This document shows, one piece after another, positions 1-41,959 of a DNA stretch of 64,000 nucleotides. Both the position numbers and the translations under genes were made by a program. The stretch lies in contig JAAOMT010000512.1 of the NCBI GenBank assembly GCA_016748015.1, positions 1,436,893 through 1,500,892 of the forward strand, read 5' to 3'. Below the pieces are notes generated by a model. The model was given only the letters and a program-made list of their open reading frames with translations. It made no database searches and was not told the DNA's origin. Numbering within the stretch: position 1 is the first letter of the stretch; every line of letters begins with the position of its first letter. The stretch comes from Geosiphon pyriformis uo1. Its lineage: Eukaryota > Fungi > Glomeromycota.

Positions 1-573
1 AAAGCAAGATACCACACAAACAACACCATTTAAATTGGTATACGGTAGAACAGCAACATTACTAGTTGAGATAAAAGTCAATATATATCCAACTGAACAA
101 TAACAGAAGATAATTTCCAAGAAACATTGTTGAGAAAAACATATAACTTAATGGAAACACTAGAAAACAGATAACGAAAAGCAGCTGATAACATCTAAAA
201 GTCACAAAAAAAGCAAAAAGAATGATATGATAATCAACTACCAAATAAACTGGTTAAATTCAAGATTGAAGACAAAGTACTATTATATTATACCAAAGTG
301 GAAAAACAATGGAGTGGAAAATTTGACCCCAAATGGGATAGACCATTTTACATAGAAGAAATTCTAAGAAATGGAGCTTATAAATTAAGATAAAACAACA
401 AAATTTTAGCCAAAGCAGCATATAGTAATTGACTGAAACCATATTACCAGATAGTATCATCATCCACCAATAACATTCCACAATTAGAAGTACAAAGAAT
501 ATTAGTTCAACCAGATGAGATTCCACAAGATCTGGAACTAATCATAGTTATTGAACCAAACACATCAAATTGA
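1..573 (+). pseudogene. pol: Integrase C-terminal part of element Z, with stops and a frameshift
   Basis: Reads TTPFKLVYGRTATL...EKQWSGKFDPKWDRPFYI (GPY/F region)...IPQDLELIIVIEPNTSN-stop. Confidence 0.88.
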
Positions 574-610: not shown

Positions 611-1573
611 TGTTATCAGAGGTTTTTGGTCTCTTTTCTTGAATATTGTAACTGTCTGTTGGTTGCAAATTCACGTTTTCTAGAAGTAGTTGAACCTCCA
701 ATAACTGAATTTATCTTCAAATTATCCCTTATAATTTGAACTGCTGGACTTATGAGTGGAATGGCCAATTCTCTGTCAGTTACTTTATGTAGTTACTTTG
801 TAGTAAACATCAACTCTTTCCCAGAAATTGCTCGTCTGGAAGCTCACTAAAAATGTGTAGTTACTTTGCTGTGAAAGTCAACTCTTCTACAGGAATCTTA
901 TCTGTAGGCTATCCTAATGATTGTAATAAAAAAAGAAAATAAAATAAAAAAAATGTAAAAGAAATAGGATTTTATCAAGGAAAACGTTTTCTATTCAGGC
1001 CTGGAGTCACTAACAGATTACTGAAATTGGTAGCTAATCAATTTCAAAATGTTAGTTGTGTTGAGGGAATTTCAAGTGTAATAATTTTAAAGATTTGGTT
1101 TTTGAATATTTTAATTTTTATTTGATTTTGTAAAAAAAGGTGATTTGTTCTAATTAAGATATTTTAAGTAAGTTACTATGGTAAGATACATTTTCTTAAA
1201 GAGAAAAGCTCTTCTTTTATACAACTTGTTGTAGTACTAGTCTATGAACTTGCACTTTTTCTCTTTGCTCAAATTTCAGCAAACTAAAGATATATTTTGA
1301 TAGACTACAAGTTATTTCACTGAACTATTGATTAATTTGGGTGAGCTATTCATAATTTCGGCAAATTTTAGAATGTTACAAAGTTCAGGGTATTGTGTAA
1401 TTTGATCATCTTACTTTCTGTTATACTAATTGAATTATTTAATTGAATTATGATATGTGATAATTGATTAAATAATAAATGATAATTTGAAATGATATTA
1501 ATATACTAATTAATTATAGGAATTATAAGAGTAATTTTTATGCCAATTAATAGCTAAAATTCTACTGGTAATA
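611..1573 (-). repeat. 3' LTR of element A
   Basis: Direct repeat of 9510-10492; termini TGTTATCAG...CTGGTAATA, decayed from TGTTACCAG...CTGGTAACA. Confidence 0.95.
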
Positions 1574-2253
1574 TAATCTTCTCTCCAGACTGAGCTTTGT
1601 CAAAGTCCAAGCACTATCTGTAATATTGAGATAGTGATCCAAAATAATTGAAGTAACCTGGTCTGAAAATTGTTGAAATTTCAGTTCTGTGAGTTTGCTA
1701 ATATATTGGACTTTCATTGGTTGCAGTATTGGATTTTGTAGAACATTTTCACAAGTATTAAACAAATCATAGAGTCTAAAAGCTGTTCTAAGTTTGTAGT
1801 AAGTGTTTGTTGGTCCAGCTGCTGTTTTGAATTGATTGTGAATTTGCTTTTGTATAGCTTTAGGAGTGAGATTTGTTGCTTCAAGTTCCAGTTTTCGTTC
1901 ATAAAGTGTGTTTCCAATGTGAAAGTATTTATATATAGAGGTGTGTTCATTGTTCTGTTCATTGAAAAGTAATAGAAGTTTTTGTTGTATTGTAGCATTT
2001 GGTGGAATGTCAATAGGAGCAATTAAAAGATTTTCTTCCAGTGCTTGCTTCAAAAGTCTTGGTAACTTATTTTCAGAGTGACTTCTTGTTTTTTTTCTAT
2101 AGGGGTGATAGTTCTGTGAATGATTTGCTACTGGGGCTGTGGTTTTTTCTGAATATAATTAATTTGACTTCTATTAATCGTTATGGATAAGTCAGGAAGT
2201 GTTTTCAAGACTAACTTTTGGGATATTTGTTGAATATTTCGGGGAATAATCAT
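1562..2253 (-). pseudogene. ORF3 of element A (unknown protein in the env position), frameshifted
   Basis: ATG at 2253 gives MIIPRNIQQISQKLV...; the track ORF 1562-2053 continues it. Homologous by eye to ORF3 of Z, C and D. Confidence 0.75.
1577..1586 (-). promoter_or_regulatory. Polypurine tract of element A
   Basis: Minus-strand GGAGAGAAGA, 3 nt before the 3' LTR. Confidence 0.8.
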
Positions 2254-2355
2254 GATAAAATTGACTAATTATGAAAAGAGAGAATAAAAAAAATTATTTT
2301 TGAATATGGGGTTTTTATTTGTTTTTGGGTTTGGATGTTTTTGTAATTTATTTAC

Positions 2356-3783
2356 TATTTTTGTCTTTGTGTTTTTATTAGAGAATTATTGTAAATTTTA
2401 AGTGTTCAAGTTTGGTTGTTGTTTTATTATAATTATTGGTTTTAAATTTCGGGAAATATCTTTAAGATTAATTAAAAAGGAATGTGTACCAATTTGTAGA
2501 ATTAATAGTTTAGGATTGTTTCTGAAATAATAGTGTTTCAATCTGTCTCCATGTGCAACTTTTACTAGTATTTTGTTATCAAGTCTTAACTTATATGATT
2601 CATTGCCTAGAATTTCGTGAATATAAAATGGTCTATCTCATTTGTTTTCAAATTTCTCACTCCATTGTTTTTCAGTCTTAGTTCTGTGTAAGAAAACTTT
2701 ATTTCCAACTTTAAATTCGTTGGTAATAGGTGGTAATTTGTTGTCATGTCTTTCTTTTTGTTGAGCTTGGGAATGTTCAATATAAGTTGCTACTATTCTT
2801 CTTTTTCCTTCCAGTGTACTAAGAAGAGTGTAGGCCCTTCTTTGGAGTGTTTCTTGAAAGTTTTCTTCATTGATTGGTTGCACTGAGTATGTTTCTACTG
2901 TGAAATTAATTGGTAATGTTGCTGTCTTTCCATAAGTAAGATCAAATGGTGTGTGTTTCATAGTATCTTGTTTTAGCATTCTATATGCTAGTAACACTAA
3001 TGGAATAAAGATATTCCATTTCTGTTCAAAGTCTGTTGAAACTTTGGCTAGAGATTCACACAATGTTCTGTTAAAACGTTCTACAAGTCCATTTGTTTGA
3101 GGATGATAGAGTAATAATAGAGGTTTTTTGACATTGAACTGTTCACAAATTTTTTGCATCAAGTTGTTCACAAAATGTGTTTCTTGATCAGATAAAAGTT
3201 CAATTGGGCATCCATGTCTACAAATAATGTCTTCATAGATGAAATTTGCTACTAATTTTGCATCTGCTCTTTGGATGGCTCTAGCTTCAAGCCATTTGGT
3301 AAGATAATCTACTGCTATTGCAATATAACAATTTCCTTGGGTTGTGATAGGTAATGGTCTGACTAAATCAATTCCAACTCTGTCAAAAGATTGTCCAACT
3401 TTGATTGGATTTAAAGGTTCTGTGGGACAAGTTCCTCTTCTTCTTTGACAACTATCACAAGATTCTACATATTGTCGAATGTCTTTTTGCATGTGAGACC
3501 AAAAATAATGTTCAAGGGTTCTTTGAATTGTTTCATCTCTTCTCAAGTGTGCTGAAGATGGATCTGTGTGCATGTTGTATAAAATTGTTTCTTTTTCATT
3601 CTCTTGTACTAATCTGAGTGGTTGGTTTAGGTTTCTGTGATTTTTATAATAGATTTTGTTCTGATGTATAAAATATTGTTTTGATTGGTGTTGTAAATGA
3701 TGTTTTTCACTTGGAAACCAGTTTTCTGGCTTGGTAAGAGTCTCCAAATAATTTTTAAAATTGCTGTAATTTCTGAGATCCAT
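2356..3783 (-). pseudogene. pol: Integrase of element A (HHCC zinc finger, DDE core, GPY/F; no chromodomain seen)
   Basis: ORF 2638-3783: MHTDPSSAHL...CDSCQ, GIDLV, LLSDQETHF, HPQTNGLVERFNRTL; continues past a TGA into PFYI...HGDRLKHYY. Confidence 0.93.
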
Positions 3784-3840
3784 TTTTGTTTGGTTATTTT
3801 GTTGGTAGGTTGGTAAGTTGTGGTGGAATTGTTGTTGGTA

Positions 3841-5280
3841 TTAATCTTGTCTCATTCTTGAGAGGCTATCAACATTGGTATGTAGTTTTCCTGGTTTATG
3901 GTGTACAATATATTTGTAGTCTGCTAGGAAATCATTCCATCAAAACTGTTTGGCACTTTGTTCAGTTTTCTTTTTATTGAGCCATTTGAGGCCAATGTTG
4001 TCTGTTATTATGTCAAATTCTTTTCTATTCTTCAGATATTGTTGAAAATGTTTAAGAGCCCAAATAACTGCGGCAGCTTCTAATTCAGTTAAGTTGTATT
4101 TTAGTTCTGTTGGTTTGAGTGTTCTATTAGCATAAGTGATAACTTGTTCTTGTCCATTTTCATATACTTGTGATAAGATGGCACCAAATGCTATATGTAA
4201 AGCATCAGTAGCTAGTTGAAATCATTTGTTAAAGTCTGGATAAGTAAGAACTGGGGCTGTTGTCAGCTTTGTTTTGAGAGTTTCAAATGCTTTTTGTTGT
4301 TCTTCAGTCTATTTGTATGGCACATTTTTATTGGTGAGATAATTGAGTGGTTTGGCAATTTCTGAGAATCCTTTGATGAATTTTCAATAATAGGAGACTA
4401 ATCCTACAAATTCTCGTAGCTCTGTGGTATTTTTAGAGATTTGGAAGTTTTTGACAGCACTGATTGTTCCAGGGTTTGGTTTAACTCTATCTTTGCTAAC
4501 AATATGTTCAAGAAAGATTAAGCTTGTTTTTCCAAAGTGACATTTCTCAATATTCAACTTCAATTCTGCTTTCCGTAATCATTGAAAAACTTTTTACAGG
4601 TAAATAAGATGGGCTTCAAAGCTTGATAAGTACACATCAGTGTCATCAAGATAAACAACTACTGATTGCCATAAGAGTCCTTCATATACAACATTCATGA
4701 GTCGTTGGAATGTTGCTAGTGTATTGCAGAGTTCAAAAAGCATAACATTGAACTCATAGTTTTCTTCTTGGGTGGTAAATGCTGTTTTGGATCAGTCTTT
4801 TGGGTCCATTTCGACTTGCCAGTATCCACTTTCCAAGTCTAAAGTTGAGAAGAACTTGGCTTTTCCTAGAGCATCTAGCATGTCATCAATTCTTGAAAGA
4901 GGATAGGCATCTCTAATTATAACACTATTCAGTTGTCTATAATTAACACAGAATCTGATTTTTCCGTTTTCTTTTTAACTAAAACTACTGATAAGACCCA
5001 AGAACTTCTTGATGGTTAAATCAATTCGTTATTGAGCATTCTTTGGATTTCTTCTCTGATGAATTGGTGGCTGGCAGGTGGCACTCGATAAGCTTGTGGA
5101 TGTTTTGGTAAAGCATCTCCTGTATGGATATGATGTTGAACAATGTTCATTTTTCCCAAGTTATTGTTGTCTTTTGCAAATATATCTGCAAATTCAGCTA
5201 TCAATTGTTTCAATTGTTTTTGTTGTTAAGATTCTAAGAGACCTATGTTAATACGAGAGAGTTTTTCTTCCAAAAGATGG
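3841..5280 (-). pseudogene. pol: Reverse transcriptase and RNase H of element A
   Basis: FSTLDLESGYWQV, VVYLDD (about 4640-4660), ATDALHIAFGAILSQ, TELEAAAVIWAL, HTNVDSLSRMRQD-stop. Confidence 0.93.
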
Positions 5281-5684
5281 TAGTTTTCAGTAGTGGGAAT
5301 GATATTTGAATTTGGGAGTAGAGTGTGCCTTACAATTTCGATAAAATTAGAGACAATTTGAGGGTTTTCATCTTGAAAAATATTGCTGTATATGATTCCA
5401 ATCTCTAATTTGTTTAATAAGACAATAGAGTAATTATTAGGGTTGTAGAATGTAACTCAAAATTTTTTCATTCCTTTGGGAATATAAACATTTGGAATTG
5501 AGATTTCATGCTTCAAACAGATTTGTTCATTGGATTCAAAGATTTGTTGTGTAGTGGTGGGTTTTGAGCAAGTGTAAATTTCGTGATATTCTTCAAAAGG
5601 TAAAATAATAATTGGCTGGGGAAGTTGAAGAATCTGGTGAAATTTATTTTGTGTATTAAGAGCTATGTTTACTAGAACTGTAAA

Positions 5685-6125
5685 TCATCCAGTTGAACCA
5701 AAACCTTGAGTTTCTCTTTCACTTTTTCCCAATTGTTCTCTGTTGTTTACTGATTGTAAACCCGAAATGTTAATTAAAAGTAAGTAAATTGCTTGAGCAA
5801 TTTTTTCAGCATGTTCAATTTTGAATGGTTTATTTGTCTTATTTTGTAACATGATAGTAATGTCTCTAGTGTATCTTGCATCTATAACTCCTCCTCTAAT
5901 ATTAATTCCTTTGGTTGCCAATGATAATCTGGAGGCAATTTGAACCATTGTTCCTGGTGGTATTTCAAAAGCAATTTTGAGATTAATTTTTGTCAAGGAC
6001 TTTGGTTGGAGAACCAAAGTATCTTTTCCTGGGTATCTTAGGTCATATCCAGCATCAATTTCGTGTGCTTTTTCTGGTCTGATTCCTTGGCCATGGTTGT
6101 CAAAATATTTAAGTTGTAGAAGTGG
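5685..6125 (-). pseudogene. dut: dUTPase domain inside pol of element A
   Basis: All five trimeric dUTPase motifs: DAGYDL, ASRLSL, GGVIDARY, EKIAQ, RETQGFGSTG. Confidence 0.93.
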
Positions 6126-6239
6126 TTGCTTTTCAAAAAGATAGATGGGGGTGGTTGGTAATTCTTCTACTAGTTCAAATACTCCAAATTCGATTTCATT
6201 TTCATCATTCTCATTTGGCAAAGGAATGTTAAGAGCATA

Positions 6240-6860
6240 ATATTTTAAACACTATTGGTCATCACAAGGCATAATACATTTTTTACACAATTGAATGTTT
6301 ATTTGCTCTAATTGTTAAATTTGAGCTTTTTTGGTCGGATATGTGTGGCTTGCAATTTGGTGGTAGGTTTCTATTTCATCTTCATAATCAAATCCAGCTA
6401 ATTCCATAGTATACTCAATATATTTAGCTTCTTTCATTTGGTGGACATCTTTTTGGGTGGCTCTATTGATCAATGCTATTGCTAAGTCAAAAATCATTTC
6501 AGCATTATGAGGGTAGTAGTAAAGTTTATTAAGAGTACTGTTGTATGCTGCATCAAATGGTGTTCCTCTTCTGACTTTTTCCGAAATTGATAGAGCATAT
6601 TGACAGGTTTGATTACATACTCCTCCTCTTATTGCTACATTAATTCAATTGTATTCTTCTGGTAGCATTTTTCCATAAGTAAGACAAGGAGTTTTGTCCC
6701 ATTTTCCACTTCTCTTTGGGGATCCAAATCATTCTCTATGGCATGCCTTGCAGAAATAACAAGTGCAAGTTTCGTATTTCTCTTCTGGGGAAATACAGGC
6801 TCTCATAAATAAAAGCTTCTTTTTGCAATCTTTGCATTTTAGTGGAATGTATGATGGTTT
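6240..6860 (-). pseudogene. Cysteine-rich domain between protease and dUTPase in element A
   Basis: CRDC, CKAC, GGVCNQTCQY, RGTPFDAA, YPH, LCKKCIMPC; homologous segments are present in B, C and D. Confidence 0.7.
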
Positions 6861-7049
6861 TTTTCGTGGTTCTGGTGTGGAATATCTAACTTTTTTTCAT
6901 CTTCTTGATTCTTCAAAAATCTCTTGTTTTGTTTTCTCAGCCCAATTGGATGGTGATCTAAGAGCCATGTAAGTTTTAGTAAGTGACATTTCTTTCTCTT
7001 CTTCAAATTCAAATACTGGAGCTTTTTCTGATCATTTGTTAAAGGTATC

Positions 7050-7520
7050 ACAGGTTGCAGATACTATGGTATATTGTTCTTGGTATGAGATTTTAAGTTC
7101 TTGAGTTTTTCAGTTCAGGTTTGTATTGCCCTTGAGAAGCCAATCATTTCCGACTAGAACTTGGTATTGGGGTGCATTCATAACAAGAACTTTAACTGGA
7201 ATGGTGATTCCATCAATTGTAAAGGGGAAATTATCAATTTCTTCTACTAGAGTCTTCTTCATACTATCAGCTGTGACAATAACTGTTTGAGCTGGTCTGT
7301 CTATGTTTTGTTTGAGTTGTTGCATCAGCTGGTAAGTGATGATACTTCCAGCCAATCTACTATCTAAGATTAAGTGAATGGGTTTTTTTTCCACTGTAGC
7401 TTCTGTGTATATAGCAGTAATTGCTTTCTGTTCATTGACTGCTGTATTACTAAGCAGAAATGGTGATTTATTTGCTTCAAATTCAAATGAAAATATATCT
7501 GACAGATTGGCATTTTGGGC
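7050..7520 (-). pseudogene. Aspartic protease of element A
   Basis: LILDSRLAGSII (decayed DSGSAGS) and LVGNDWL. Confidence 0.9.
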
Positions 7521-7599
7521 AATTTGAGTTGGTGGAATGGTATGGTTAGAAGGATTTGATTTTGGTGCTGCAATTTCACCTTCAGAAAGTGCAGTTTGT

Positions 7600-9464
7600 T
7601 GAAAATCCGATTTCTCTGGTATTGTAAGATAACTGGGTTGAGTGTGATAGTGATTGGGTCTTTGCTGACCCAAATTTCGGGGAACCAACTGGTTATTTGG
7701 ATTAATTCTGTTGTTGTTACTCTGCAATTGATTTTGGGGTATAAATTGGTTATATTGAACCAATTTTCTTGCTGATACTTGATATTGTTGAGTGAGTGGT
7801 GTCTGATATGGCTGAATTGGTAAAAATTGCTGATATTGTTGCTGCATTGGTTGTGGAGTTGGTGAATAGTAACTGTTTTGATTTTGTGATCTTGGTGAAT
7901 AATAAGTTGGTGATAGAGATTGATAATAAAATTGTTGTGGTAAAGAGTAATGTTGATTACTCCTGTTTTGTTGGTCTCTTTGTAATTTCTTACAATCTCG
8001 TTTCCAGTGTCCTGGAATTCTACAATAATGACAATTTTGAGGTTAGTTGTTGGATGGTGATCCAAAATTGTTTTGGTTGCATTGTTGTGAGGGTTGATAT
8101 CTTTGTGATTGTTGTTGTTGTTGTTGTTGGTTTGTGAAGTAGCTTTCAACCTTTTTTGTGAGTTGGTCTATCTTCTCTTCAGCTGTTGAGCTGGTTTCTC
8201 CAATTGCAAGGTTTACAAACTTGGTGTGATTTGTTTTTTCCATTGCCATTTCATAGCTTTTTGTATATCTAATAGCAGTTGCTAAGTTTGTTAGAGCATG
8301 TAGATGGACTTTCTTAATCAGTTTGTCTTTTAACCCTGCTATAAACTGATCCAGAATTTGAGCATCAAAATAGTAGTCATTGGTTTCCAATTGTCAGATT
8401 TGTCTGAGAAGTTTGTTAAATCTTCTAAGATAGGTCATAACAGTTTCAGATGTTTCTTGTTTGATATTGTGAAAGTGATTTTTGAGAGTGATAGAGATAT
8501 TGTTGTCAGTGAATTGTTATAGAAAAGCAGCTTTGAATGCTTGCCAGTTTTCAAATAGTTCTTCTAAATTTTCAAACTATTCTCCTGCTGTTCTTTGAAG
8601 AAAGTAGGGAATTGCTTTGAGTATTTTTGCTGTGATCCAACTATTTGCATCTCCTGCTTTTTGAACTTTGTCAAGCCATTCTTAAGAACTGGTATTATTG
8701 TCTTCACTAGTAAATTCTGGAATTTTTGCAATGTAAGCAGTTGTAATTTCTTCTTCGTTTTCTGTAATTTCTTCTGGTTTTGATTCAGTTTCTTCACTTT
8801 CCAAGCTTTCCGAATAATTATTTTCATTTTCCTGTAAGTAATCAATGATATTGGCACTTGTTGATATTGGTTCCTGCTATTGAGTAGAGTTTCTAGGTGA
8901 CTGAAAATCTTCTGGTCTGAAGAAGTGGTTGAGTGGTGAATTTGGTGTTTGTGGTTGAACAAGTGAAATTGGAAATAGTGTAATAGAAAGTGGTAGTTTG
9001 ACACTGGTTCCTTGTTTAGGTGTTTGCAAGTGTTTGGCAGTTGTCTTTTGTAGTGTTGGAGTGTTTGGAGTGGTTCTTGAGTATTGCTTCAATCTTTGTT
9101 TGTCTTTGTTGCTTGTTTCTGTCTCTGATTCAAAATCAATAGAGTATTGAGACTGTACTGGGTATTATTTTTCACAATACTCAATAATGTTAAAATTAAG
9201 TTCTTGGAAGTAGGTAGCAAGTGTTTTACTGTTCAGATCTTCTGTTCTCAATCGTGAATAGTACACTAAATTATTGTAAAGATTGCTTCTGACTTCTGAA
9301 ATATTGTAGTTTCCAAAAAGATAATTGTTGATGCAGTTTTCAATATATTGGTATACTGATTTCTTGACAACTTCAATTCCGTCTGAAATGTTGAATCTTT
9401 GCTTGCAGTGAATGTAAATTGACTGGTAATACTCTAGAGTTGCTGTGTTTGGTGTGGTTACCAC
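7600..9464 (-). pseudogene. gag: Gag of element A: N-terminal extension, capsid, CCHC knuckle
   Basis: CHYCRIPGHWKRDC near 7990-8035; ILDQFIAGLKDKLIKKV; AYIAKIPEF capsid start. Confidence 0.88.
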
Positions 9465-9489
9465 TTTGAATTTGTTTTTGCTGTGTTGT

Positions 9490-9507
9490 TTCTGTGGGAG
9501 AGCACCA
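9490..9507 (-). promoter_or_regulatory. Primer binding site of element A
   Basis: LTR end, then TT, then TGGTGCTCTCCCACAG, complementary to a tRNA 3' end ...GAGAGCACCA. Confidence 0.85.
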
Positions 9508-9509
9508 AA

Positions 9510-10492
9510 TATTACCAGAGGTTTTTGGTCTCTTTTTTTGAATGTTGTAACTGTTTGTTGGTTGCAAATTCACGTTTTCTAGAAGTAGTTGAACCTCCAA
9601 TAACTGAATTTATCTTCAAATTATCTCTTATAATTTGAACTGCTGGGCTTATAAGTGGAATGACCAATTCCCTGCCAGTTATTTTATGTAGTTATGTTGT
9701 AGTAAACATCAATTCTTTCCCAAGAATTGCTCGTCTGAAAGCTCACTAAAAATGTGTAGTTACTTTGCTGTGAAAGTCAACTCTTCTACAGGAATCTCAT
9801 CTGTAGGCTATCCTAATGATTGTAATAAAAAAATAAAAGAAAATAAAAGAAATATAAAAGAAATAAGATTTTATTAAGGGAAACGTTTTCTATTCAGGCC
9901 TGGAGTCACTAACAGATTACTGAAATTGGTAGCTAATCAATTTCAAAATGTTAGTTGTGTCGAGGAAATTTCAAGTGTAATAATTTTAAGGATTTGGTTT
10001 TTGAATATTTTAATTTTTATTTGATTTTGTAAAAAAAGGTGATTTGTTCTAATTAAGATATTTTAAGTAAGTTACTATGGTAAGATACATTTTCTTGAAA
10101 AGAAAAGCTTTTCTTTTATACAACTTGTTGTAGTACTAGTCTATGAACTTGCACTTTTTTTCTTTGCTCAAATTTCAGCAAACTAAAGATACATTTTGAT
10201 AAACTACAAGTTATTTTATTGAACTATTAATTAATTTTGGTGAACTATTCATAATTTCGGCGAATTTCTTATAAATTTCGGCAAATTTTAGAATGTTACA
10301 AAGTTCATGTATTGTGTAATTTAATCATCCTACTTTCTGTTATACTAATTGGATTATTTAATTGAATTGTGATATGTGATAATTGATTAAATAATAAATG
10401 ATAATTTGAAATAATATTAATATACTAATTAATTATAGGAATTATAAAGGTAACTTTCCTGCCAATTAATAGCTAAAATTCTATTGGTAACA
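9510..10492 (-). repeat. 5' LTR of element A
   Basis: Direct repeat of 611-1573, ends TGGTAACA, adjacent to the PBS. Confidence 0.95.
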
Positions 10493-10514: not shown

Positions 10515-11150
10515 ATGGAAATACCAGATTATATTTACACTATAGCTCAACAATTGTTCCAGGCCTTAAGTAAACAACAGTTAGACATAGAAATTGTTAT
10601 TAACAACCAAATAATTTGCTATCGAAGCACCCAAAGAAAGACAAAAAATACACTATATTAGCAGCCACCAAAAAATGATAAAAAATGAACAAATAACTTA
10701 ATAGAAAAAGTAAAAAACACTTTTGGGAAAATATCTATTATGGCACCAACAAAAGAGCTTACAAAAGAAAATTGGAAGCAATAGACAGAACAACTTCCAA
10801 TATTATATTGCTACTACTAGTTAGGTCAAAAGTTGAATATTCAGGAGTTGTATATTAACAATATCAAGAAAATATTCAACCAAGACATAATACAACAAAT
10901 TGAAGAATTTATCAGAAAGAAAATGAATTCAACACTACATGTTAAAACAATATACCGACTACACAACATATTTCAAAACTATCCAGAAATACTGTTCCAC
11001 TTTGACATGGAAATTATAACCATTAACCAATGGGAAAAAATAAACAATACACAAGTAGAAGACATAAGAAACAGAATTGAACAAACAATACTTGAAAAAG
11101 AAGTATTAGAATTAATTCAAAATGAAGATTTTGTTGGAGCTCAATATTAG
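10515..11150 (+). pseudogene. ORF3 of element Z (212 codons, several internal stops)
   Basis: AAAAATGG start gives MEIPDYIYTIAQQLFQAL, in frame with track ORF 10833-11150 ending DFVGAQY. Confidence 0.8.
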
Positions 11151-11828
11151 CATTGCTTGAGAAATTATAGCACATCACTTAAAAATGTGAGCAATCTCGT
11201 AAAACCCAAATTATGTATATATAGTGGTAGCATTAGAAGTAGAAAAAGACAGACCTCTCCATTTAGATTTCATCTAAGCGACCTTTTACTCCACAAATAT
11301 CAATAAATAATTATTCTCTATTTCAAATTCACTCTCCATTATTAACACTTCATGTTGATAATAATTAATACTTAAACACACTGGAACAATAACTCTTGAT
11401 CATGGCTATTGACAGGATACTAACTTGCAATTGCTTTTATTTACTTCTTTTATTTTCTTTTATTTTGTTATTTCTTTGTTTGACTAATCGATTAAAGATT
11501 AAGTGCTGAGTTATTAACATCAAGAATAGCCTGGTAAAAGACCCTAAAGGAAGGGTATAAGAATTATATATATTAATGAATAGCTTATTAAAAAGGCATC
11601 TCTGTCAAGATTACCAGCCACCATATTGAAAAAATAATTTGACAGAATTGTAATTCTGAGAGACTACTAGAAAGACAACAATTGAATCTCTGTCTATTAT
11701 ACAAAAGATTCAACCAAAATCTTTAGACACAAACAACACCTTTTAATATCCCCAAGCAGAACAATTAATTAAGCACTAAGTTATGAGTTTGTTATTTGAT
11801 TTGAGATCTCAAATAATCACTTATAACA
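11151..11828 (+). repeat. 3' LTR of element Z, missing the PPT and the start of U3
   Basis: Matches the family-1 LTR from the ATTGCT repeat block onward; ends TATAACA at 11828. Confidence 0.85.
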
Positions 11829-12200
11829 TCACTTACTTCCCAATAGCCTTAACAATTGATGTGATAATAATAATTCAGTCACTTACTTTCTAATAGTCTT
11901 AACAATCAATGCAACAATAATAATCAGATTTACTTATTTTTGGATGGTCTTAGTAATCAATGCAACAATAGTAATTCACTTACTTTTAGACAGCTACAAC
12001 AATCCACATAAATATATTAATCAAATTTGCTTATCTTTAAATGGTTATAGCAATTAATATAACAATGATAATCAGATTCACTTATCTTTGGATAGTCTTG
12101 ACAATCAATGTAACAATAATAATTTACTTCACTTACTTTTGGATAGTTATGGTAATTATTACAGCAATGCTAAATAAATTTACTTAGTGGCTTGGACAAT
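11829..12200 (+). repeat. Degenerate minisatellite, about 7 units of 45-51 bp
   Basis: Unit approximately TCACTTACTTTTGGATAGTCTTRACAATCAATGCAACAATAATAATCAGAT. Confidence 0.85.
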
Positions 12201-12689
12201 TATTCAATATTTGCCATCAAAACAAAGCAGAGCATGCTATTTTACACCAATTTGCTTATTGTAACTTTTAAAATTATACCAATAAAATAATAAATTAATG
12301 AATAAAGCAAACAATGATAGATTAATATAAGTTTTATTATTGCAATACTTAAATGCAAAATAGGGTCAATATTTTAAAATAATATTTAGGACACCTTTTA
12401 TAATCTGAGATACCTTATATGTCTGATTAAATATGAGATAACATCTGATGTTCATATCTAATATTATATGATTATAGTGTAACTATAGAGAGTAGAAATT
12501 ACTTATATTCTGATATCATATTTGTGGGTATAGGAACTATAAGGAGATATATATAGTAAAAATGACTATAAAGAAATAATATTATATATAAATGGTTTTG
12601 GTTTTTAAAAAAATGTAATTATAAGGAAATAGTGACTATAACCAGAGAGACTATAGAGAGAGTTTATTGTAAATGATAATACTATATAG

Positions 12690-13945
12690 TAATATGATTT
12701 CAGGCAATCACCATATACTGCTTTGACTAAGATTTTGTTGTCCCATTTTAATTTATAAGCTCTATTTTCTAGAATTTCTTCTATGTGAAATGGTCTATTT
12801 TATTTGAAGTTGAATTTTTCACTCTATTGTTTTTCTGCTTTGGTATAATATAAAAATACTTTGTCTCCAATTCTGAATTCAACTGGTTTATTCCATAGTT
12901 GGTAATCATGTCTTTTTTTTTGTTTTTTTTGTGATTTTTGAATATTATCAACTGCTTTTTGTTGTTTGTTTTCTAGTGTTTTTATTAAGTCATATGTTTT
13001 TCTTAACAATGTTTCTTGAAAATTGTTTTCTGTTATTGGTTCAGTTGGATATGTGCTGACTTTTATCTCTACTGGTAATGTTGCTATTCTACTATATACT
13101 AATTCAAATAGTGTTGTTTGTATAGTGTCTTGCTTTATTGTCCGATAAGCAAATAATACTAATAATATAAACAAATCTCATTTGTCTTGATTTTTTTGGC
13201 TGATTTTGGCAATTGTTTCACACAATGTTCTATTGAATTTTTCAACTAAATTATTAGTTTGTGGATGATATGGTGATGATAATAGTCTTTTTATTCCAAA
13301 TTTTTGACTTAATTCTGTTAATATTTTATTCACAAAGTGAGTTCTTTGATTAAATAGTAATTTTTTTGGGCATCCATGTTAACAAATCAAATCTTGATAA
13401 ACGAATTCAGCAACAGATTCTGCATCTGCTTTTTGAATGGCCTTTGCTTTTAACCACTTAATAAGATAATCTATGATTACTGCTATATATTTATTTTTTT
13501 TGCTGGTTATTGTTAATGATCTGACTAAGTTAATCTCAATATGATTGAATGGTTGTCTTACTTTAATTGGTCTTAATGGTTTACTCAGTCTTGTTTCTTC
13601 TCTTCTCTAACAAGCATCACAATTTTGAATGTATTAGATGATGTTTGGATACATTGATGGCCAATAGTATCTTTTTCTGGTTCTTTTTATGGTTGTTTCT
13701 TTGTAAAAATGTCTTGCTGTTAGATCAGAGTGTATGTTGAATAATATTGTTTCTTTCTCTGGTTTTGTGATTACTCTGGTTGGTTGATCTGAATTCTTTT
13801 TGTTTTTTTGATAAAGTATATTTTGGTGAGTAATAAAATATTTGGACTGTTGTTTAATATAATTTTATTCCTTTTGAGATAATTTTTTCTTGAACTATTA
13901 AGTATTTATAAAATATTGAAGTTGTTAATATTTTTGTGTATTCAT
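12690..13945 (-). pseudogene. pol: Integrase of element B
   Basis: ATG at 13945 (MNTQKY); PYHPQTNNLVEKFNRTL; track ORF 12824-13174. Confidence 0.88.
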
Positions 13946-13979
13946 CTTTTGTTATATTTTTGGATTAGAATGTTCTTAG

Positions 13980-15380
13980 ATTTGTCTTATCTGTGACAAA
14001 CTGTCAGTATTTTCATTTTTTTTTATTGTAGTGTACAGTATATTTAAATGGTAAAAGTTCTATTTTTTATTAAGCATAGCAGTTGTCTCCAAATTCTTGT
14101 TTCTAAATCAATGTCAATTCTTTGTGATCAGTGTATATGTCGAATTTTTGGCTTAAGTATTTCTTCCATTTTATAACTGCTTAATAAATAGCTAAGTGTT
14201 TTAGTGCTGGTGTTCTATAATTCTTTCTGCTGGACTTAAACTTTGGCTGACATATACAACTGGATGTTCTCATCCATCCAGTCTTCTTTGTAATAGTATA
14301 GCTCTCAATGCTTGACTTGATGTATTTGTAGTGATGATAAATGACTTGTTATGATCTGGATAAATCAATATTGAAGCTTGGATGAGTTTTCTTCTCAAAG
14401 TGTTAAAAGCTTTTTGTTGTTTTCTTATTCATTTATACTTCACATTTTTGGCTTGAAGCTGGTAAAATAATTGAGCTATTTTTGAAAAGTTCTGGATAAA
14501 GCAGTAGTAGTATTCAGCAAATTCCAAGAATGTTCATAGTTCTATCAAATTGGTTGGTGCTAAAAAGTTCTTTATTATCTCAATCTTGTCTGGATCTGTC
14601 TTGATTCTATCTTTGCTTACTACATATCCCAAGAATTTCAATTCTGTTTTGCCAAAAAAGCATTTGGTAACATTTAACTTTAATTTTGCTTGTCTTAGTC
14701 TTTCAAATACTTGTTGTAAATAATAAAGATAGTCATCAAATGTTTTTGAAAATACATTGGTGTTATTTAAGTAGACTACTACTAATTTCCATAGCAGTCT
14801 AGTATAAACAATTTTCATAAGCCATTGGAATATAGCTGGTATATTAGTCAAGCCAAATGGCATTATTTCGAATTCAAAATTTTTTTTTGGTTATAAAAGT
14901 GGTCTTCTCTTTATCTTCTAGTTTTATGACTACTTGCCAATAATTACTATCTAAATTCAATATTGAAAACCATTTCTTTTCTCCAAAAGTGTTAAATAAT
15001 TTTTGAATTTGTGAAGTTAAATAACTGTTTCTACAAGTTACTCTATTGAGTTTTCTGTAATCTACACAAAAATGAATTTTCCCATTTTTCTTATGAACTA
15101 ATACCATTGGTAATAACTATGGACTTATTAATAGTTGAATTAACCCATTGTCTAACATTCAATTGATTTCTTGTTAGATGAGTTTATGGCTTGCTAGTGG
15201 TACTTAATATGCTCTTTGTTTAATTGGCATTGCATTTTCAGTCTTAATTTGATGTTGGATTATGTTAGTTCTGCCAAATTCATTTTCATTAGCAAAGATG
15301 TCAGTAAAGTTGTTGAGTAATATTTTGAGTTGCATTTATTGTAATGAATTTAGGTTTTCTAAATTCATTTGTTTCAATTG
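13980..15380 (-). pseudogene. pol: RT and RNase H of element B
   Basis: FCVDYRKLN, MPFGLTNIPAIFQ, VVYLNN. Confidence 0.9.
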
Positions 15381-15799
15381 TTTTGGCTAGAGCAAATAGC
15401 ATTCATTTTGTCTGTAGATTGTTTGTAATATAATGTCCACATATTCACAAAGTTGTGAAAAATCTGGAATATTGTTTGGTGGTTGGTTGTCAACTTTAGC
15501 ACTTAAATATCTAATAATAGTTCCTTTTGGTATCTCAATAATATCTCCTGTTGTATTGTAGATAGAGATTTTGATGTGTTTAGAGCTTTTGGCTGGTATG
15601 TAAAGATTGGTGAGTTCAATTTTTCCTGATTTACAAATTGCAGCTTCTATTTCAAACATTTGAGCCTGATTTTTTACTTTTCTCTTCATAGCTAACATAT
15701 ACTGATTATATAGTAAAATAAAAATTAATTAACAGATGGAGATAATTTCTCTCTTGTCAACAATTTTTTCCTCTGTTATATTAATTAATATGTCTATTC

Positions 15800-16240
15800 T
15801 ATTTGTAGATCTGAATCTACTAATCCCTCTAACTGTAATCCCTAATTTTTTTCTATCTCCTACCTATATTAATTGAGTTATTTTGACCAGAGACAGGAAT
15901 ATTGCTTGTGCTATCTTTTTGTTTGGCTCTATAATATAGACTTTTTTTGAATCATTTTATAGTATTGCAATAATATTTCCCACATATTCTGCATCAATTA
16001 TTTCTTCTCTAATATTGATCCCCTTTTTTGCTAAACTACTCTTAAATATTAGTTGAATTATTGTTGTTGCTAAGATTTCTAAGGCTATTTTTAGATTAAT
16101 GCATATGTACGAATGTGGTTCCAATTTTATGACTTCTTTTCTTAGATATCTTAGATCAAACTCTGTATTGGTATTATGCACACATTCTGGTATAATACTT
16201 TCATTATTATTACTGAACCATTTAAGTTTCTGCTCCTTGG
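15800..16240 (-). pseudogene. dut: dUTPase domain of element B, decayed
   Basis: NTEFDLRY, FKSSLAKKGINI, IIDAEYVGNI, KIAQAI, RGISRFRST. Confidence 0.82.
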
Positions 16241-17329
16241 TAAAATCAGGAAGTGCAATGTATTGTTTTGGATTTGAATTAGAGTTTGAATCATTATTGT
16301 TATTGTCATTTTGAATGGAGCTGGAACTGTTGTTTTTATTGTTGTCATTATTGGAGTTTGAATCAGGATGAAATGTTGATTCCAATTCCAATGCACAGCT
16401 GCTGATTGGTTTTTCTTCTTCTGAGATCATGTAAATTATGTATAGTAATGGATTATAAATAAGATCACACTTATTACAATATTGAAAGTTATATGAAATT
16501 AAACAATAGTCACATAATTAGGTGTTTAGCTGCTCTAAACATTGTTTTTGCTCTTTCCTAGTGGGTGCTAATTCTTGGTAGTGTTTATGAAATTGTTTTG
16601 GGTCCATAGGGTTTAAAACAATATCTGAATTTGGGCTCCAATTAAATTCTATGGGTTCTGATGGGTTGTTTTTAATCATTCTTATTTTTTCTGGCAATGC
16701 ACTTTTAATTTTGGTGAGAACCATTCTCCATATTTTGTTATTATTATGTGAACAACCATCCAAATATTTTATAGCTCTTCTCTATATAGTGTCTATAGGC
16801 ATTTCTTTTCTTATCCAGTTGCTGATTAAAATCATGTATTGACACAATTTATTGCATGTTTTTCTACAACCAGGAATGTTATTCCACATTTCTTTGTCTA
16901 AAAAAGTTTCTCTACATACAAAGCATAGTTCATTATTCTATTTCTCTTGTTGTTTAGGTCATCCAAAATGCTTTAGAATACATGATTAGCAATAAAACTT
17001 GGTTGCCATTAGCCATTCTTTATCATTACCACAACATGTACTCATTAATGACAATTTTTTGTCACAGTCAACACATATTAACTTTGGTCAACAATAGTTG
17101 GGTTGAGATATAGTGTATAGAATGTAAGTAGAGATGGTGGTTTGAGTAAGCTTTTCTTCTTTTTTCTTTCATTTCCCTTTGTCTTTTTAGGTTAAAATTG
17201 GCAGTAGTTCATTGTGATTGCTTTTAGCCCATGATACTTGATAAGCTTTCTAAGTAGGTTTGTTCTTTTTTTCTTCTAATTCTATGAGTAGTGTTGATGT
17301 AGTGTTCATCTGAAAATGGCTGTATGTGG

Positions 17330-19928
17330 CCAGTATATGTATGTGCTAACTGTTTTGACTGAGTTAAAGTTCTTGTATGGTTTAATCAAACACTGCATTA
17401 GTTTTAAACAACCAGTTGTTGCCAACTAGTGCTTGATATTGGGTTGCTTCTATTACCAAGACTTTGATAGGAGCTATGATACTGTTGACTTCAAAAAAGA
17501 AGTCATCAATTTTGCCAATAAGAATTTTAGTCACTTTATTGGCTGTAATAATTCTGGCGCTAGCACAATCAACTTAGTGACCTAATTAGTCCATAAGTTG
17601 TTATGTAACAATGCTGTCTGCTAATCTACTATCAAGAATTAGTTTGATGAATTAATCATCAACTTTGGCATCAGTGTATATTGCAGTAATAGGTTTTATA
17701 TTAAGAACAGCTCTATTAAAAAAAGATGTTTTTGTTAATTTTTCTATTTTGAAAAAAAAATTACTGCTAATGATTCATTGTTAGTGACAGTTGCTGGTAG
17801 AATATTACTGGTAAGTGGTATTTGGTTAGTTTTCTGATTGTTGTTTTAAGTATTTTCTGAGATTACAAAGAGGCTTAAATAGTTCTGAGAATTTGGGTTT
17901 TGGGCATATCCAGTTTCTAAATTCCACTGGTATAATCCTGATTGTGGAGTTAATGAACTGAAATTGATTAATGTACTACTATTGCTGATCTTCAGTTTTG
18001 CTAAATAGTTCTCAGCCTTTGATTTTTAGTGAGCACTATCATTTGTGATAGTATTTGGATTTGCTGAGATTAATAAATTATTTGTGGCTGTAATTAATAA
18101 ATAACTAATACTGGAGTTTAATAAATGAATGGTTGATAAATTGGCTGCTGTGTCATTGATAGATAATTTGGTTGATATAATTCTGGATTTGGTTGATAAT
18201 TTAGAGTTTGAAACCAGCAATCAGAGTTTCAATATTGATTTCCTGATCATTGGTTATTTATGTGGTTGCAATAGTCGATTTGTAAGTGTCTTTGTTTACT
18301 ACAATAGTGACAACTACACATTTTAGTTTGCTATTGCTGATTGGTGGATGATAATAGATGTGACTAATGTTAGAAATAATTTGCATTTCCTTGATTATTA
18401 CATTATTGTAGAGGTTAATAAATGGCTTGATTGTTAACTAAGTATCCCTCTAATTTCTAATTGATTGAGTCACTGAATTGCTTTAACTTGGAATTCAAGT
18501 TAAATGATCTGTTTATTACTAGATTTATAGCTTGGCAGCTTTAAAATCTTTGGCATAAGTGACTGCAGCTTGAAGATTAACTGGATGTAATGAGCATATG
18601 TGTTGTAGGATGCTGTTGTATAATTCATGAATAAATTGATTCAAGATTTGGGCTATGATAAAATAATTAGCATCAATGACTTGGATTTAATGCAAGTTTC
18701 TGTGAAAGCATTTCAAATAAGTAGTGACTGCTTCTGTATCTTTTTGCTTAATAGTGATGAATATATTAGCCAAGCAATTAATGCTGTTGTTATTGCTGAA
18801 ATATCTTAGAAATTTTAGCTTGAATGCATCGAACATTTGGAATTTCTAAGCCAAACTTTAATACCAGGAATTGGCCATATCCTGTAAAAAATATGGAATA
18901 GCTTGGAGGACTTTAGTGTTATTCTATTCATTGGTAGCAATGGCTTTTCTCTCATTGTTAAGTTATATTTGAGCATTATCCTCTTTGCCAGTAAATTTCT
19001 TGAGTTTGGTGATTGAAACAAATGCTATTGGTGCAATTAATAGTTGTTGGGGTGGCTGTTGTAATTGTTGCTAGTGTTGTATTGGCTGTTATAGAGGTAT
19101 GACAACTAGTGGTAGATCTATTATGAGTTTTGGAGGTAAGTTTTGCTAATTAGCAATGTTAGAGTTTGGATTGTTTTGATTTTGTTGAGTTTGATTGATT
19201 AGAGTTTGATTTTCTGGGTTTTTTGAAATTGGGTTTTGATAATTAAATTCTTAATCTTTGTTTTCTTCTTTTTTTAATTCTGTCACTTCTCAAAAACTTG
19301 TGGTTCTGAAATCTGGTTAAAGTGGTGGTGATCAAAATTCTGATGGCATTGATAATTACAATTTAAATTCTTCAAAATAATTGTCATAGGTTTTTAATAA
19401 CTCTGCTTTTTTTTGTTTATTTTGAAATGAGAGGTGAACTAATGATGGTTTTGTATTTGAGATAGACATGTCTGATAATGAAATATTGATGGTGCTTTCA
19501 GATGTATAGTAATATAATAAGTTGGTTGGTGGTTCTATTCTTGTTTTCTTTCAAGTGAGTGGTTGTATTTTTTGAGGTGTTACTGCTGGTGTTTGTAGTT
19601 TTCTTTTGCTTTTGTTTGCATAAGTGATTGGATATCTTTGTTGAGTGTAATTTTTAATTTCTCTATTGATTTTAGTGAAGATTGTCATGAAGTTATAATT
19701 TATTGGTAAGCTGGTATTTTGGATTAATTCATTGTAAAAATTTCTTCTTGCTGAATTGGTTTCTATTGGTACTCCTAGCAAATATGAGATTTTCTTGTTG
19801 ACATAAAAATTAAAGGCTGATTCTGCTAATAAGTAATTGTTGATTAATCTCAAGTGTTAACAGTAATGTTGAAATAAGGATTTGGTGAATCTTAAATGAT
19901 TTGTATCTATTCTTTCTAATTCTGCCAC
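17330..19928 (-). pseudogene. gag: Gag and protease of element B
   Basis: LILDSRLADSIV and LVGNNWF protease motifs, decayed CHYC knuckle, N-terminal domain in track ORF 19551-19853. Confidence 0.82.
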
Positions 19929-19991
19929 TTTTGAATGGTTGTTTGTTGGTGCTGGTTCTCTGTAGGATTATATCTCACAAAAAGCACCAAA

Positions 19992-20812
19992 TGTTACAGA
20001 TAATTATTTGGGGTCTCAAATCAAATAACAAATCCGTAATTTGGTGTTTGATAACTGATATGATTGGTATTATCTAAAAATTTTGGTGATCCAAAGGTTT
20101 TGGTTAAGTTTTTTGTATAATAAACAGAGATTCAATAGGGTGCAATTTTTTTGTGATGAGTTTCTCAATTTTTTTCTTTAGCTTAGTGGCCAGTTTATTC
20201 TGGCAGTTGTGCTTTTTTAGTAAACTATCCAATTCTTACTCTGTATCCTTTTATTTGGGTCTTTTACCAAATTATTCAATACATCAATAACTCAATGTTT
20301 AATCTTTTAATCAATTAGTAAACAACAAGAAACAAATAAAGAAAATAAAAATAAAGAAAAAAAATAAAGAAAATTAAGCCAAGACAATAAAATTAGTATC
20401 TTGTCAATAGCCATAATCAAGAACTATTGTTTCAGTGTGATCAAATATTTGATACTATCAACATAAAGTGTTGATAGTAAAGAGAGTGATTTAGATAGTG
20501 AATAATTTTTTATTAATACTAATAATTCTAATAAAGATGTAGTAATGGAAAGGTCTTGGTTATTAATTCTGTCTTTTCTGCTTCTAATGCTCTTGCTATA
20601 TATATATAATTTAGGTTCTACAAGATTGCTCACATTTCTAAGCAATGTATTATAATTTCTTGAGCAATGCTTACATTGCTAAGCAATGTGCTCTAATTTT
20701 TTAACATTGCTCCACATTGCTGAGCAATGTGCTTATATACTAACTACTACTTTCTTATTAGTCTATCTGTTTTCCTACTATTTTTTTTTATATGTTTTTT
20801 TTATAAATAACA
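19992..20812 (-). repeat. 5' LTR of element B
   Basis: TGTTACAGAT...AATAACA; similar to the D and E LTRs. Confidence 0.92.
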
Positions 20813-23800
20813 GTATGTAATAACTTCTTAAACTAAATTGATTATTGAAAAAAATAGAAACCCAAATCCAAACCAAGATTATTTATTTTGGTTAACAGAC
20901 ATAAAACTAAATTTAATATATTTTTTATATTATTTTTTAATTTTAAAACATTTGATAAATTTAAAGACATACTTTTGTAACAATTTTACTACTGGTAATT
21001 ACACTCAAACTCTTATTTATTACTATTTTTGCCTTTTGATTCTACAATAAATAGATTACCAATAACTAATATTCAAGATTAAACTAAGAAATTATTGGAT
21101 TAAATATGTTCAATTTTATAGCCAACTTATTAACTTGTTCTATAAAGCTAGTAAGATTGTATTTAAAAACAATAAATCTATTATTTACTTTTACAAACAT
21201 TGACAAAAAAGGTTTAATATCTGAAAACAAATCAATACCAAAAAAAACCTAAAACATTACATAAAAAAAAAACTACTAGCAATCTGTACTTATGTTTTAC
21301 TACTAAAAGAAACTTAATAAGCAATTGATGTCTACTTTTTTTATATATGCCAGCCAACTATATTTAATCTTAAAAAAATACTAGTTTTTTATTATAATTA
21401 CTCAAATTTTTACTAGCTAAATATGTATTAAAATATGATCAAATTGTTTATACAAAATACAACAGACCAAAAAAAGATCAGCTTAACACAAATTTACATT
21501 TTTAAAAACCAAAACAAAACTAATTACAGCTTTTTTTAAAGCTTTATTATTAAAACAAATTACAGCATATTTGTTATATTTATATAAATCTAAATTATAA
21601 TTAATAAAACAAATTTTTTTTACTATATAATATCAATAAATTAAAAAGATTATAAATACTAATATTAACTAACAAGATATATAACAAAGTTTAATAACAA
21701 TTTCTTGATATTTATATTTGTTTATTATTAGTGGTTTTGGTTACACAAACAGAATTTTTTCTTATAAAAACTGACTAGTTAGTTATAACCAATTTGGCAA
21801 TATTAGCAAATTTAAATTCAATTAAAGTTTTTTGCTAAAAACCAATGAGTTGTATTTTAATAAACACTATTTTAAGGTGCATGAGCTGTTATTTTCTATG
21901 TTAACTGAATTACAGATAGTAGTCTTGGCTTTAGAGTGTGTTTTTTTTGATTGCTCTGTAGTTGTATACTTGGATAGTTAAGTTATATTAAATACATATG
22001 TTTCAAAACTTATGCTGGATTGTTTAAACTTTCATAATAAGTACTGGGTGGAAAGATGCCATATTGCTAATTTGATCAGAACCAAAAATATTTCTGTTAA
22101 ATAGGTAAAGATTAAAGGGCATTTAAGGGTTTTGAGCAATAATAAAGTTAATGTTCTAGCAGATAAAGCTGTATATTCTGAATTGTTGCTTCCTATAGAA
22201 ATTCATAGAAAATTTATAATGGCTGATGGCTAGATTGTTTTTGGGAATGTTTGCTATTTTGTTTGAAATGTTTATTAGTCTGTATATTATGCTCAATAAG
22301 AAGCTGATCCTGGTGCCAAAATAGTAAATAAGTCTTTAATTGCAGATATTAATTGGATTAGTACTGATGTAGTTTGGCATTCAGATTTATACATGCTGTT
22401 TGAGTTCATAAGCAAAGCTTCTACTATTCTTTATACTTATATGATAAAGGCTGTTCACAGAAGGCTGCCAACTGCAATAAGGAAGAGACTTTACAACAGA
22501 GTATATCCAAGTGTGTTATGTCTGTTTTGTGATAACATTAAACTATCTGATCATATTTTTACTTGTCCAAAAGACTCTAATACATGAACTAACATTTTAT
22601 TTATGTTAAGCTCTGAAAATCTCTGACAAATGATAGCTGCACATTGTTTTCCAAGATGCTGCATTCACTTCTCTCTGGAATCTTGAACATTGGTATTTAC
22701 ATGGTTTTGTGTAAAAGTTTTGTTTTTAAAAAATAGGTAGATAAGGCAGTTAATATTTTCAATAATTAGAAAAGAGCATTGTTTATAATAGTTAATTTCA
22801 TTCATGGTTTGGCTGAGAGACATCAAAGTAAGTTGTAATTGTTTAGGACTAAATTCAGAATAGGGTTGGAGAAAACCAGTCTGACTAAAGATGTTGGCTT
22901 GATTAATATGACTTTAAAGAAGATTCTGGGTCTTTTGTCTATGGGAACTGTTCAACTGCTTGGTATTTTCGAATTTTTTGCTGTTAGTTTTAGTTTGTGT
23001 AAGTTGTGCACTTTTTTTCAAGTATTGATAATGATGTGAAGGTTCTTATAAGTGTATAGTATAACTTAAACTGGCCTGAATGGCTGATCACATGTAGTAA
23101 GTACATAAACCATGTTTAGTTAGATTTTTTTATTATGTTTCTGTATGTTAAATAGTAATTAGACTGTACTTATTAATAAAATATAAAAAAAAACACTACT
23201 TTATCAAACTTAGAAAAAACTGATTCTATGGCTGATTTAAAAAAATCAACTAGAATTTTCTTAATAATTACTTTCTAATTTATATAAATATTTACTTTTT
23301 TAATATTATTATTAATTAAAATTTTTTTACTAATCATATTCTTAGTCTTTTTCAAATTTAATTTTGATGTAAAAAATAATTTTATAATAGCAGAAAATTT
23401 TAAAAAAATAAATATCTCTTTAAAACTATTAATAGAATAAAAAATTTTTTTTATTGTCATTAATTTATTACTAAAAGTCTTGTCAAACATAGCAAATAAC
23501 TTAATATTTAATGTAAATAATATAACTGGATTAAAAATCTTTTTTTTGATTTGTAACTTAACAATTAGCAACTGTTAAAAATCAGAAAACTTGAAAGATA
23601 AAAGTATCAAAACATTATTATTATTACTTAAATTATTAAAAAAAAAATTTTTATTCTTTGGCAAACTGCTTAAAACATATGTTTTAGTATATGTATTTTT
23701 TAATATAGCATTATTCATTGTATTGTCTATGTCTAAAACAATTAAGTTTATATAGTTAATTTTTTAATAATTATGTTTTTTATATTTTTAACTTCAAGAT

Positions 23801-26894: not shown

Positions 26895-27768
26895 TGTTAT
26901 GGGATGGTTTTCTTGTTATATTTAATTGCTGATATTTCGTTTTAATTGCAATCAGTTTTTTGTGAGTTCCTCAATTCTATTTGTGTGATAATGTTACTGT
27001 TATACTGAAAGCTTTCTTTTTAATATTGTGATATAAGTTATTTTTCAATTTCTGATTGTTGTGTGTGTTTATGTACTCCTTCTCAGAGGCTGAACTGAAA
27101 TCTACCCACTGTCTGGGGTCTTCTTTGAGGCTATCCTTGCAATTGTCTAATGTGTTTCTCTAATCTAGAAACACAGAATGTTAATGGCCTTTAGCGCTTT
27201 TTCTAATTCTTACAATAAAGCTTTTATTAATTAGTAACAACGTAAATAATCTTGATCAAGGATTATTCTTCCAAGAGATTCAGTTGATGAATAATAGTTT
27301 CATTCAATAAATAATACAAGTAAGTTTCTTAATACTTTGGGTTGTGATAATTCAGTTTTAAATATTCTTTTTCATTTCTTTTTGATTTAAAGATTTCTTG
27401 GGATATTTAATTTGAAAGTATGATTTAAAGTGGAGTTTGTTGGATAAAATTGGATTTATTGCTTGATAAGTTATGATTTTTATTACTTGCTTGTTTTTTC
27501 CCAATATTAAAGCTACTGTATATATACATGTTTGTAGTTCTATGAGAAAACACATTGTAATACTTTCTTTTTGATATTTCAACCTGGTGTTTGCTGCTAT
27601 TACCAGTTGGTGTTGGCTGCTATTGTGAACTGGTGCTTGCCACTATCACGAGATGGTATTTGCTACTATGTTAATCATTATCTTTTTAAGATTATTACTG
27701 TGCTATATTATGATTGAATAGTTTATATTATTTTTATGATTCTTTTGCTAAATTCTTAAACCATAATA
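26895..27768 (-). repeat. 3' LTR of element C
   Basis: Same length as 36735-37608 and collinear with it. Confidence 0.96.
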
Positions 27769-27781
27769 TTATCCTCTCTTT

Positions 27782-28447
27782 TCAAGATTGAGCTCTGTCA
27801 AAATCGAAGTTAATTTCTTCATTAAATTCTAAGTTACTATAGTGGTTCAATACTATGTTATTAATTTGTTGTTGTAATTCTTGAAATTGCAAGTTGGTAA
27901 GTCATCTAATACTGTTGGTTGTTATTATGTTCATGGTTGGGTCCAACAATAATTTGTGACAGTTTTCAAATGCTTTAAAAATTCTGTAAACTGTTTTTGA
28001 ATAGAATGTAGTGTTGGTTTTTCCAATAAAAGGTTCTAATAGTTGGATAGTTGTTTTGTCAAACACTCTAGTTGAGTCTTTTGAGTATAATGTTTGTATG
28101 TTTAAGTGCTTTCCTAGTTGATAATAACAGTAATTAATTGGAAATTTCATTTTCAAGTTGCTAAATGTGTCTGGTGTTAATTCACTTATTTCTATTTCTT
28201 CCATTATTAATGTATTGCCCAATGCTATCTCTAATTTTTCAATAACTTTGCTGATAAATTTGTTGTTATATTTGGCAATATTATATGGTTCAAAATTATG
28301 TTCTTTTCTTGTTTTTGGATTTTCTATTGTTCTTTTTATGTATGTTATTTTGGAGCTATTAACTGTGATTTCCAGATCGGATTTTAATTGTTGTAAGCTT
28401 TCAACTAATTGTTGAGTTATATTGTTGATGTTTTCTGGAATAAGTAT
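27782..28447 (-). pseudogene. ORF3 of element C (222 codons; start decayed to ATA; one internal stop)
   Basis: (M)LIPENINNITQQLV...INYCYYQLGKHLNIQ...KTVYRIFKAF...DFDRAQS-stop. Confidence 0.8.
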
Positions 28448-28534
28448 TATTGTTTTAATTTTGACTGCTATTTTGGAATTTTTTGCATGCGTTTTTATGG
28501 TTGTTAAATCATTTTTGCTGTGATCTAAGATTAA

Positions 28535-29914: not shown

Positions 29915-29943
29915 TGTTGTTGTGGTGGGTGGGTTGGTGATTT

Positions 29944-39817: not shown

Positions 39818-39830
39818 TTATCTCTTTTTT

Positions 39831-41934: not shown

Positions 41935-41959
41935 CTTTTGTTATATTTTTGGATTTGAA

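Follow-up and report, generated by a model that had tools for sequence, protein, structure and literature searches.

A decayed third gene downstream of pol in Ty3/gypsy retrotransposons of Geosiphon pyriformis

ORF3 in the nested elements of the window

The window analysed here, a 64,000-nucleotide stretch of the genome of the fungus Geosiphon pyriformis (contig JAAOMT010000512.1, positions 1,436,893 to 1,500,892), is AT-rich (GC content 0.20–0.39) and filled by nested long terminal repeat (LTR) retrotransposons. Self-comparison and Pfam matches identified five related elements with pol sequence, termed A, B, C, D and Z. A further open reading frame (ORF) in sense orientation, ORF3, lies between pol and the 3′ LTR in A, C, D and Z, as it does in L001, a locus recovered by metagenome scan. 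The Z copy (10515..11150, plus strand) comprises 211 codons, with its own ATG at 10515 and a stop at 11148–11150; it is broken by four internal stops (codons 49, 58, 90 and 102), and shares 79% identity over its full length with P0008, an intact protein of 211 amino acids. The elements can be assigned to Ty3/gypsy by their domain order of gag, protease, dUTPase, reverse transcriptase (RT), RNase H, integrase and SH3 (Pfam for A and C; tblastn for B and D). A, C and D have LTR pairs with TG...CA ends, a polypurine tract (PPT) and a primer binding site that starts with TGG, 2 bases past the 5′ LTR.

Z has been split by the insertion of A between its pol and its ORF3. The C-terminal, SH3-like part of Z integrase occupies 1..573 on the plus strand (pol stop 571–573), and element A (611..10492, minus strand; LTRs approximately 611–1573 and 9510–10492) ends 22 bases upstream of the ORF3 start codon, its target duplication (607–610 and 10493–10496) carrying one mismatch. 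Downstream, a remnant of the Z 3′ LTR (11142..11829, plus strand) aligns to the D LTR from 39696 on, the PPT and some 120 bases at the start of the LTR being missing after the ORF3 stop. Target duplications of 4 bases flank A, C and an A-type solo LTR (78% alike), which lies at 33850–34846 inside the gag-pol region of C.

All four window elements that retain the region have kept ORF3, at the locations given in an earlier note on this DNA, which had described four copies in the position of env; every one of these frames is, however, broken. The remaining three copies are on the minus strand. That of A (1562..2253, ATG at 2253) runs in two frames near its 5′ end and is open from 2158 to 1562, with its last codons overlapping the PPT and the start of the LTR. 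That of C (27782..28450) has ATA where relatives have methionine, and one internal TGA; that of D (39831..40497, ATG at 40497) is interrupted by six stops and changes frame near 40010. Elements C (26895..37601; LTRs 26895–27761 and 36735–37601, 95% alike) and D (39018..48875; LTRs approximately 39018–39817 and 48076–48875, 88% alike) are likewise on the minus strand, as is B (12664..20816), which is close to D and breaks off where the integrase SH3 region ends, its ORF3 and 3′ LTR gone. A profile of 44 relatives matched only the A, C, D and Z copies in the window below E 0.5. In pairwise comparisons Z and C shared 34% identity (E 5e-30) and A and C matched at E 1e-12, while A and Z gave no match.

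A third gene with its own start codon, under purifying selection

ORF3 is a separate third gene with its own start codon. The distance from the pol stop to the ORF3 start is 55 bases in Z (discounting element A) and in D, 84 in C, 144 in A and 316 in L001, and the frame of ORF3 relative to pol varies among elements. In every element with its 3′ part present, ORF3 precedes the PPT, and the start methionine falls in the same alignment column in 6/8 families. L001, the single locus confirmed out of 597 pattern matches, has the order RT, RNase H, integrase (with one internal stop), SH3, stop, AT-rich spacer, ORF3, PPT and LTR-like start; its ORF3 is intact, at 230 codons.

Were ORF3 instead translated as the C-terminal end of integrase, through readthrough, a frameshift or splicing, one might expect what is seen in C, where it lies in the pol frame and a single stop parts the two, and in four annotated proteins (P0012, P0038, P0096 and P0117; no search was aimed at longer fused proteins) that join integrase pieces to ORF3 pieces. 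Each of these proteins skips a different stretch, however, suggesting that they are gene-prediction artefacts on decayed copies. Moreover, the pol stop occupies the same codon position in Z and D, and the A spacer carries further stops. Together with the variable spacers and the shared methionine, these data make such a tail highly improbable.

Purifying selection acted on ORF3 while the families were active. Over 200 codons of aligned Z and D DNA, 44, 32 and 72 differences fell at first, second and third codon positions (p=1.2e-5), and the ratio of non-synonymous to synonymous substitution (dN/dS) was 0.28 in the ORF3 frame, compared with 0.73 and 0.98 for the two alternative frames on the sense strand and 0.39–1.07 on the opposite strand. 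LTR sequence, used as a control, lacked this periodicity (p 0.8–1.0; ratios 0.45–0.88), and comparisons of RT and integrase gave 0.17, 0.31 and 0.38, a range that includes the ORF3 value. Between families, protein-guided dN/dS was 0.23–0.47, values near saturation. The suggestion in the earlier note that selection acts at the level of the protein is thus borne out, the ratio lying far from 1.

The window copies appear to have been broken afterwards, by C-to-T mutation of the kind associated with methylation. All ten internal stops in the Z–D alignment lie opposite Gln, Trp or Arg codons and are transitions, and at three of the four Z stops the majority of run X1 contig depth has the sense codon (among the rows listed). 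In the LTR pairs of A, C and D, 175/184 changes were transitions, commonest at CpG (20/36 sites) but also found at other cytosines. CpG stands at 0.15 of expectation. The codon-position bias, the restriction of stops to transitions and the loss of CpG together indicate selection first and methylation-type decay later. It could still be argued that the frame arose only because a non-coding sequence was conserved, and that it never encoded a useful protein, given that no window copy is intact and that its terminal motif is conserved as DNA (see below). That argument is contradicted by the codon-position test and dN/dS, by profile similarity over eight families, by the intact reading frames of L001 and of many relatives in the annotation, by a confident structural model and by the late origin of the stops, and it is hardly credible.

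The ORF3 family and its possible role

Homologous proteins carry the name Geosiphon pyriformis, and one, P0026, repeats window copy A over most of its length. More than 200 Geosiphon ‘hypothetical proteins’ (P0008–P0204) match ORF3, many of them fused to unrelated transposon pieces; these are probably this one transposon gene, and the Geosiphon gene catalogue appears to be inflated by decayed elements. Free-standing homologues in other arbuscular mycorrhizal fungi, raised as a check in the earlier note, were absent from the 76 profile matches (10 looked up by name). A feature search of the ESM Atlas with P0008 ranked Mucoromycota clusters of 98 and 63 members first and third, and these may represent a wider ORF3 family.

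The family falls into eight branches which, apart from one close pair, align at 18–37% identity, in line with the expectation that families would show detectable profile similarity. Motifs conserved across them are I-P-x-N-I...Q-x-L, I-T-I...I-x-Y, P-Y, Y-x-Y-x2-I-G, G-K-T-N, A-x2-R-L-Y-x2-F and N-x2-G. The terminal D-F-x2-A-Q proposed earlier as a protein motif is indeed present before the PPT in C, D and Z, but what is conserved there is DNA: comparison showed AGCTCA.T just upstream of the PPT to be invariant in A, C, D, Z and L001 (1586–1610, 27770–27800, 39820–39850, 11125–11150 and, in L001, 3095–3120). Only C, D and Z translate it as DFxxAQ; ORF3 of the A families and of L001 takes a different frame across it and continues through the PPT into the LTR. 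The motif is most simply explained as cis-acting, probably as a signal for plus-strand priming or packaging.

The protein is soluble, with no membrane anchor, and is predicted to be mostly helical, as had been proposed. None of 82 relatives reached a mean hydropathy of 1.6 over 19 residues (maximum 1.5), the criterion for a transmembrane stretch; they are 210–240 residues long, with 1–3 cysteines. Hydropathy over 11 N-terminal residues was 0.7–1.8 in the nine proteins with an N-terminus, a conserved region modelled as helix plus hairpin, unlike a cleaved leader. The structural model is confident and has no recognisable fold: the helix-plus-hairpin module is followed by a basic linker, predicted to be flexible, and then by a compact core of helices. 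The linker has 4–7 basic residues per 23-residue window, model confidence there falling to 59, and in 8/9 representatives this basic, unstructured stretch contains R/H/K-x(2–5)-P-Y, from which a PY-type nuclear localisation signal may be inferred. In the core, modelled helices 105–122, 129–144 and 149–163 (P0151 numbering), together with a G-[KP]-[TN]-N turn that is conserved and followed by a basic helix, could form a helix-turn-helix-like DNA-binding unit. The core bears a weak structural and profile likeness, in one register, to the DNA-binding domains of ParB/Spo0J/KorB and to DUF1016_N (the YhcG N-terminal domain). No single test of this likeness, structural or by profile, was significant (HHalign E 0.023, 2%, and E 0.57), and hidden Markov model scores were far under the Pfam cut-off of 32.8 bits, though above reversed controls. 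Both ParB/KorB and DUF1016_N are bacterial, and no counterpart of the N-terminal helix-hairpin module of ORF3 was seen there. The linker and these weak helix-turn-helix-like signals are the only pointers to which of the roles proposed in the earlier note (transactivator, anti-silencing protein or targeting factor) the protein may have.

An envelope-like or movement protein, carrying particles between cells or along the coenocytic hypha, would fit the position and orientation of ORF3, and in the ESM Atlas search the fourth-ranked cluster was one of closterovirus coat proteins (0.93, 156/256 features), a score that the Atlas itself flags as weak. However, the Pfam matches include no env family, and the small size, few cysteines and lack of a transmembrane stretch also make this very unlikely, in agreement with the earlier note, none of whose refuting outcomes was observed. 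Among the matches listed from Pfam, from PDB sequences and from Foldseek and VIA searches there was no fusion protein.

The arrangement itself has precedents. LTR retrotransposons are on record as carrying additional sense ORFs downstream of pol and ahead of the 3′ LTR (aORF-3S; PMC7264820), and ORF3 resembles them, as they are characterised there, in where it lies and how it is oriented, in being present in most copies of a family and in its unknown origin; the plant examples given are env-like, some with transmembrane domains, whereas ORF3 is fungal, has no such domain and has no Pfam match to them. For fungal Ty3/gypsy elements, a dUTPase and an ‘add. ORF’ of unknown function are on record (PMC2864245). 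A dUTPase inside pol and additional ORFs are both known there, as in the window elements, but the survey covers ascomycetes, basidiomycetes and a chytrid and deals with chromoviruses, while the window elements gave no chromodomain match (C tail scanned). No description of ORF3 was found in the literature searched, which did not extend to supplements, Repbase or the Geosiphon genome paper. The feature is real, and ORF3 would represent a new family of proteins in an arrangement of a type already described, with its function only inferred.

The reading favoured here, tentatively and as a possibility, is that the Z stretch, a decayed copy of the third gene of a fungal Ty3/gypsy lineage, encoded a nuclear protein which bound element DNA and promoted transcription in a methylating host. 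The protein would be translated from its own subgenomic RNA, enter the nucleus through the putative PY-type signal in the linker and bind the element's own DNA, via the modelled helix-turn-helix-like unit, to act on the LTR; that action would promote transcription and so help the element against host CpG methylation. VANC of Arabidopsis VANDAL transposons, whose activity has been demonstrated (PMC6719617), offers a model for such action on an element's own family, being likewise an element-encoded accessory protein in a methylating host, although VANDAL elements are DNA transposons and a corresponding activity of ORF3 is only putative.

Export or stabilisation of unspliced genomic RNA by a nuclear RNA-binding factor would account for several of the same features. 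CERV of the C. elegans element Cer1, as described in PMC10309623, is a novel nuclear protein that is translated from a spliced mRNA and is required for export of the genomic RNA; ORF3 as read here would likewise be a novel accessory protein with a nuclear role in an LTR retrotransposon, for which CERV is a functional model, and in splicing and RNA export the parallel is only putative. ORF3 is small and soluble with a basic linker and PY-like signal, and its gene ends with a conserved DNA/RNA motif. Against this, the weak structural pointers favour DNA-binding domains, and no splice acceptor conserved across families was found, so that a need for Rev-like export is not established. An export role is accordingly unlikely, if a serious alternative.

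Rather doubtful is a tether to integrase or chromatin, steering insertion into repeats in place of a missing chromodomain. The 203-amino-acid open tail of C integrase (the only one scanned with Pfam) matches SH3_Tf2-1 only, with no chromodomain, and insertions are nested (A in Z, the A-type solo LTR in C). LTR sequence, however, makes up 41.2% of the G. pyriformis genome according to the figure in PMC11952901, and nesting is expected at such coverage. A tether must also be packaged, and as ORF3 is not fused to Pol it has no evident route into the particle. Some probability is reserved for roles other than these.

Returning to a DNA-binding activator, its boldest form would have a whole fungal LTR retrotransposon lineage carrying its own helix-turn-helix transcription or anti-silencing factor, distant kin of bacterial ParB/DUF1016_N-type domains joined to a eukaryotic nuclear import signal, with which it outran CpG methylation and filled about two fifths of the Geosiphon genome; this is speculative and quite unlikely. 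LTR retrotransposons carry accessory genes whose workings are seldom understood, and proof that an element encodes its own activator or silencing suppressor would give a clear example of fungal counter-defence. The ORF3 family is old and has intact, expressible members.

Other features of the window

The dUTPase domain lies between protease and RT in A, B, C and D (5688–6251, 15801–16229, 31780–32212 and 43799–44257), preceded in each by a cysteine-rich stretch with CxxC motifs. A weak Pfam match to Spuma_A9PTase (E 3e-4) at 31144–31557, just upstream of RT, contains no catalytic motif of a protease and may reflect a mis-annotation that recurs. A further element of B/D type (LTR remnant and gag) occupies 61725–64000 on the plus strand and continues beyond the window. 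Decayed copies of another repeat occupy 20815–26900, 37602–38600 and 49170–61600 in both orientations, with RT-like, RNase H and cysteine-rich C-terminal pieces resembling those of a non-LTR retrotransposon. Between the Z LTR and the truncated end of B, a tandem array with units of ~51 bases spans 11848–12186.
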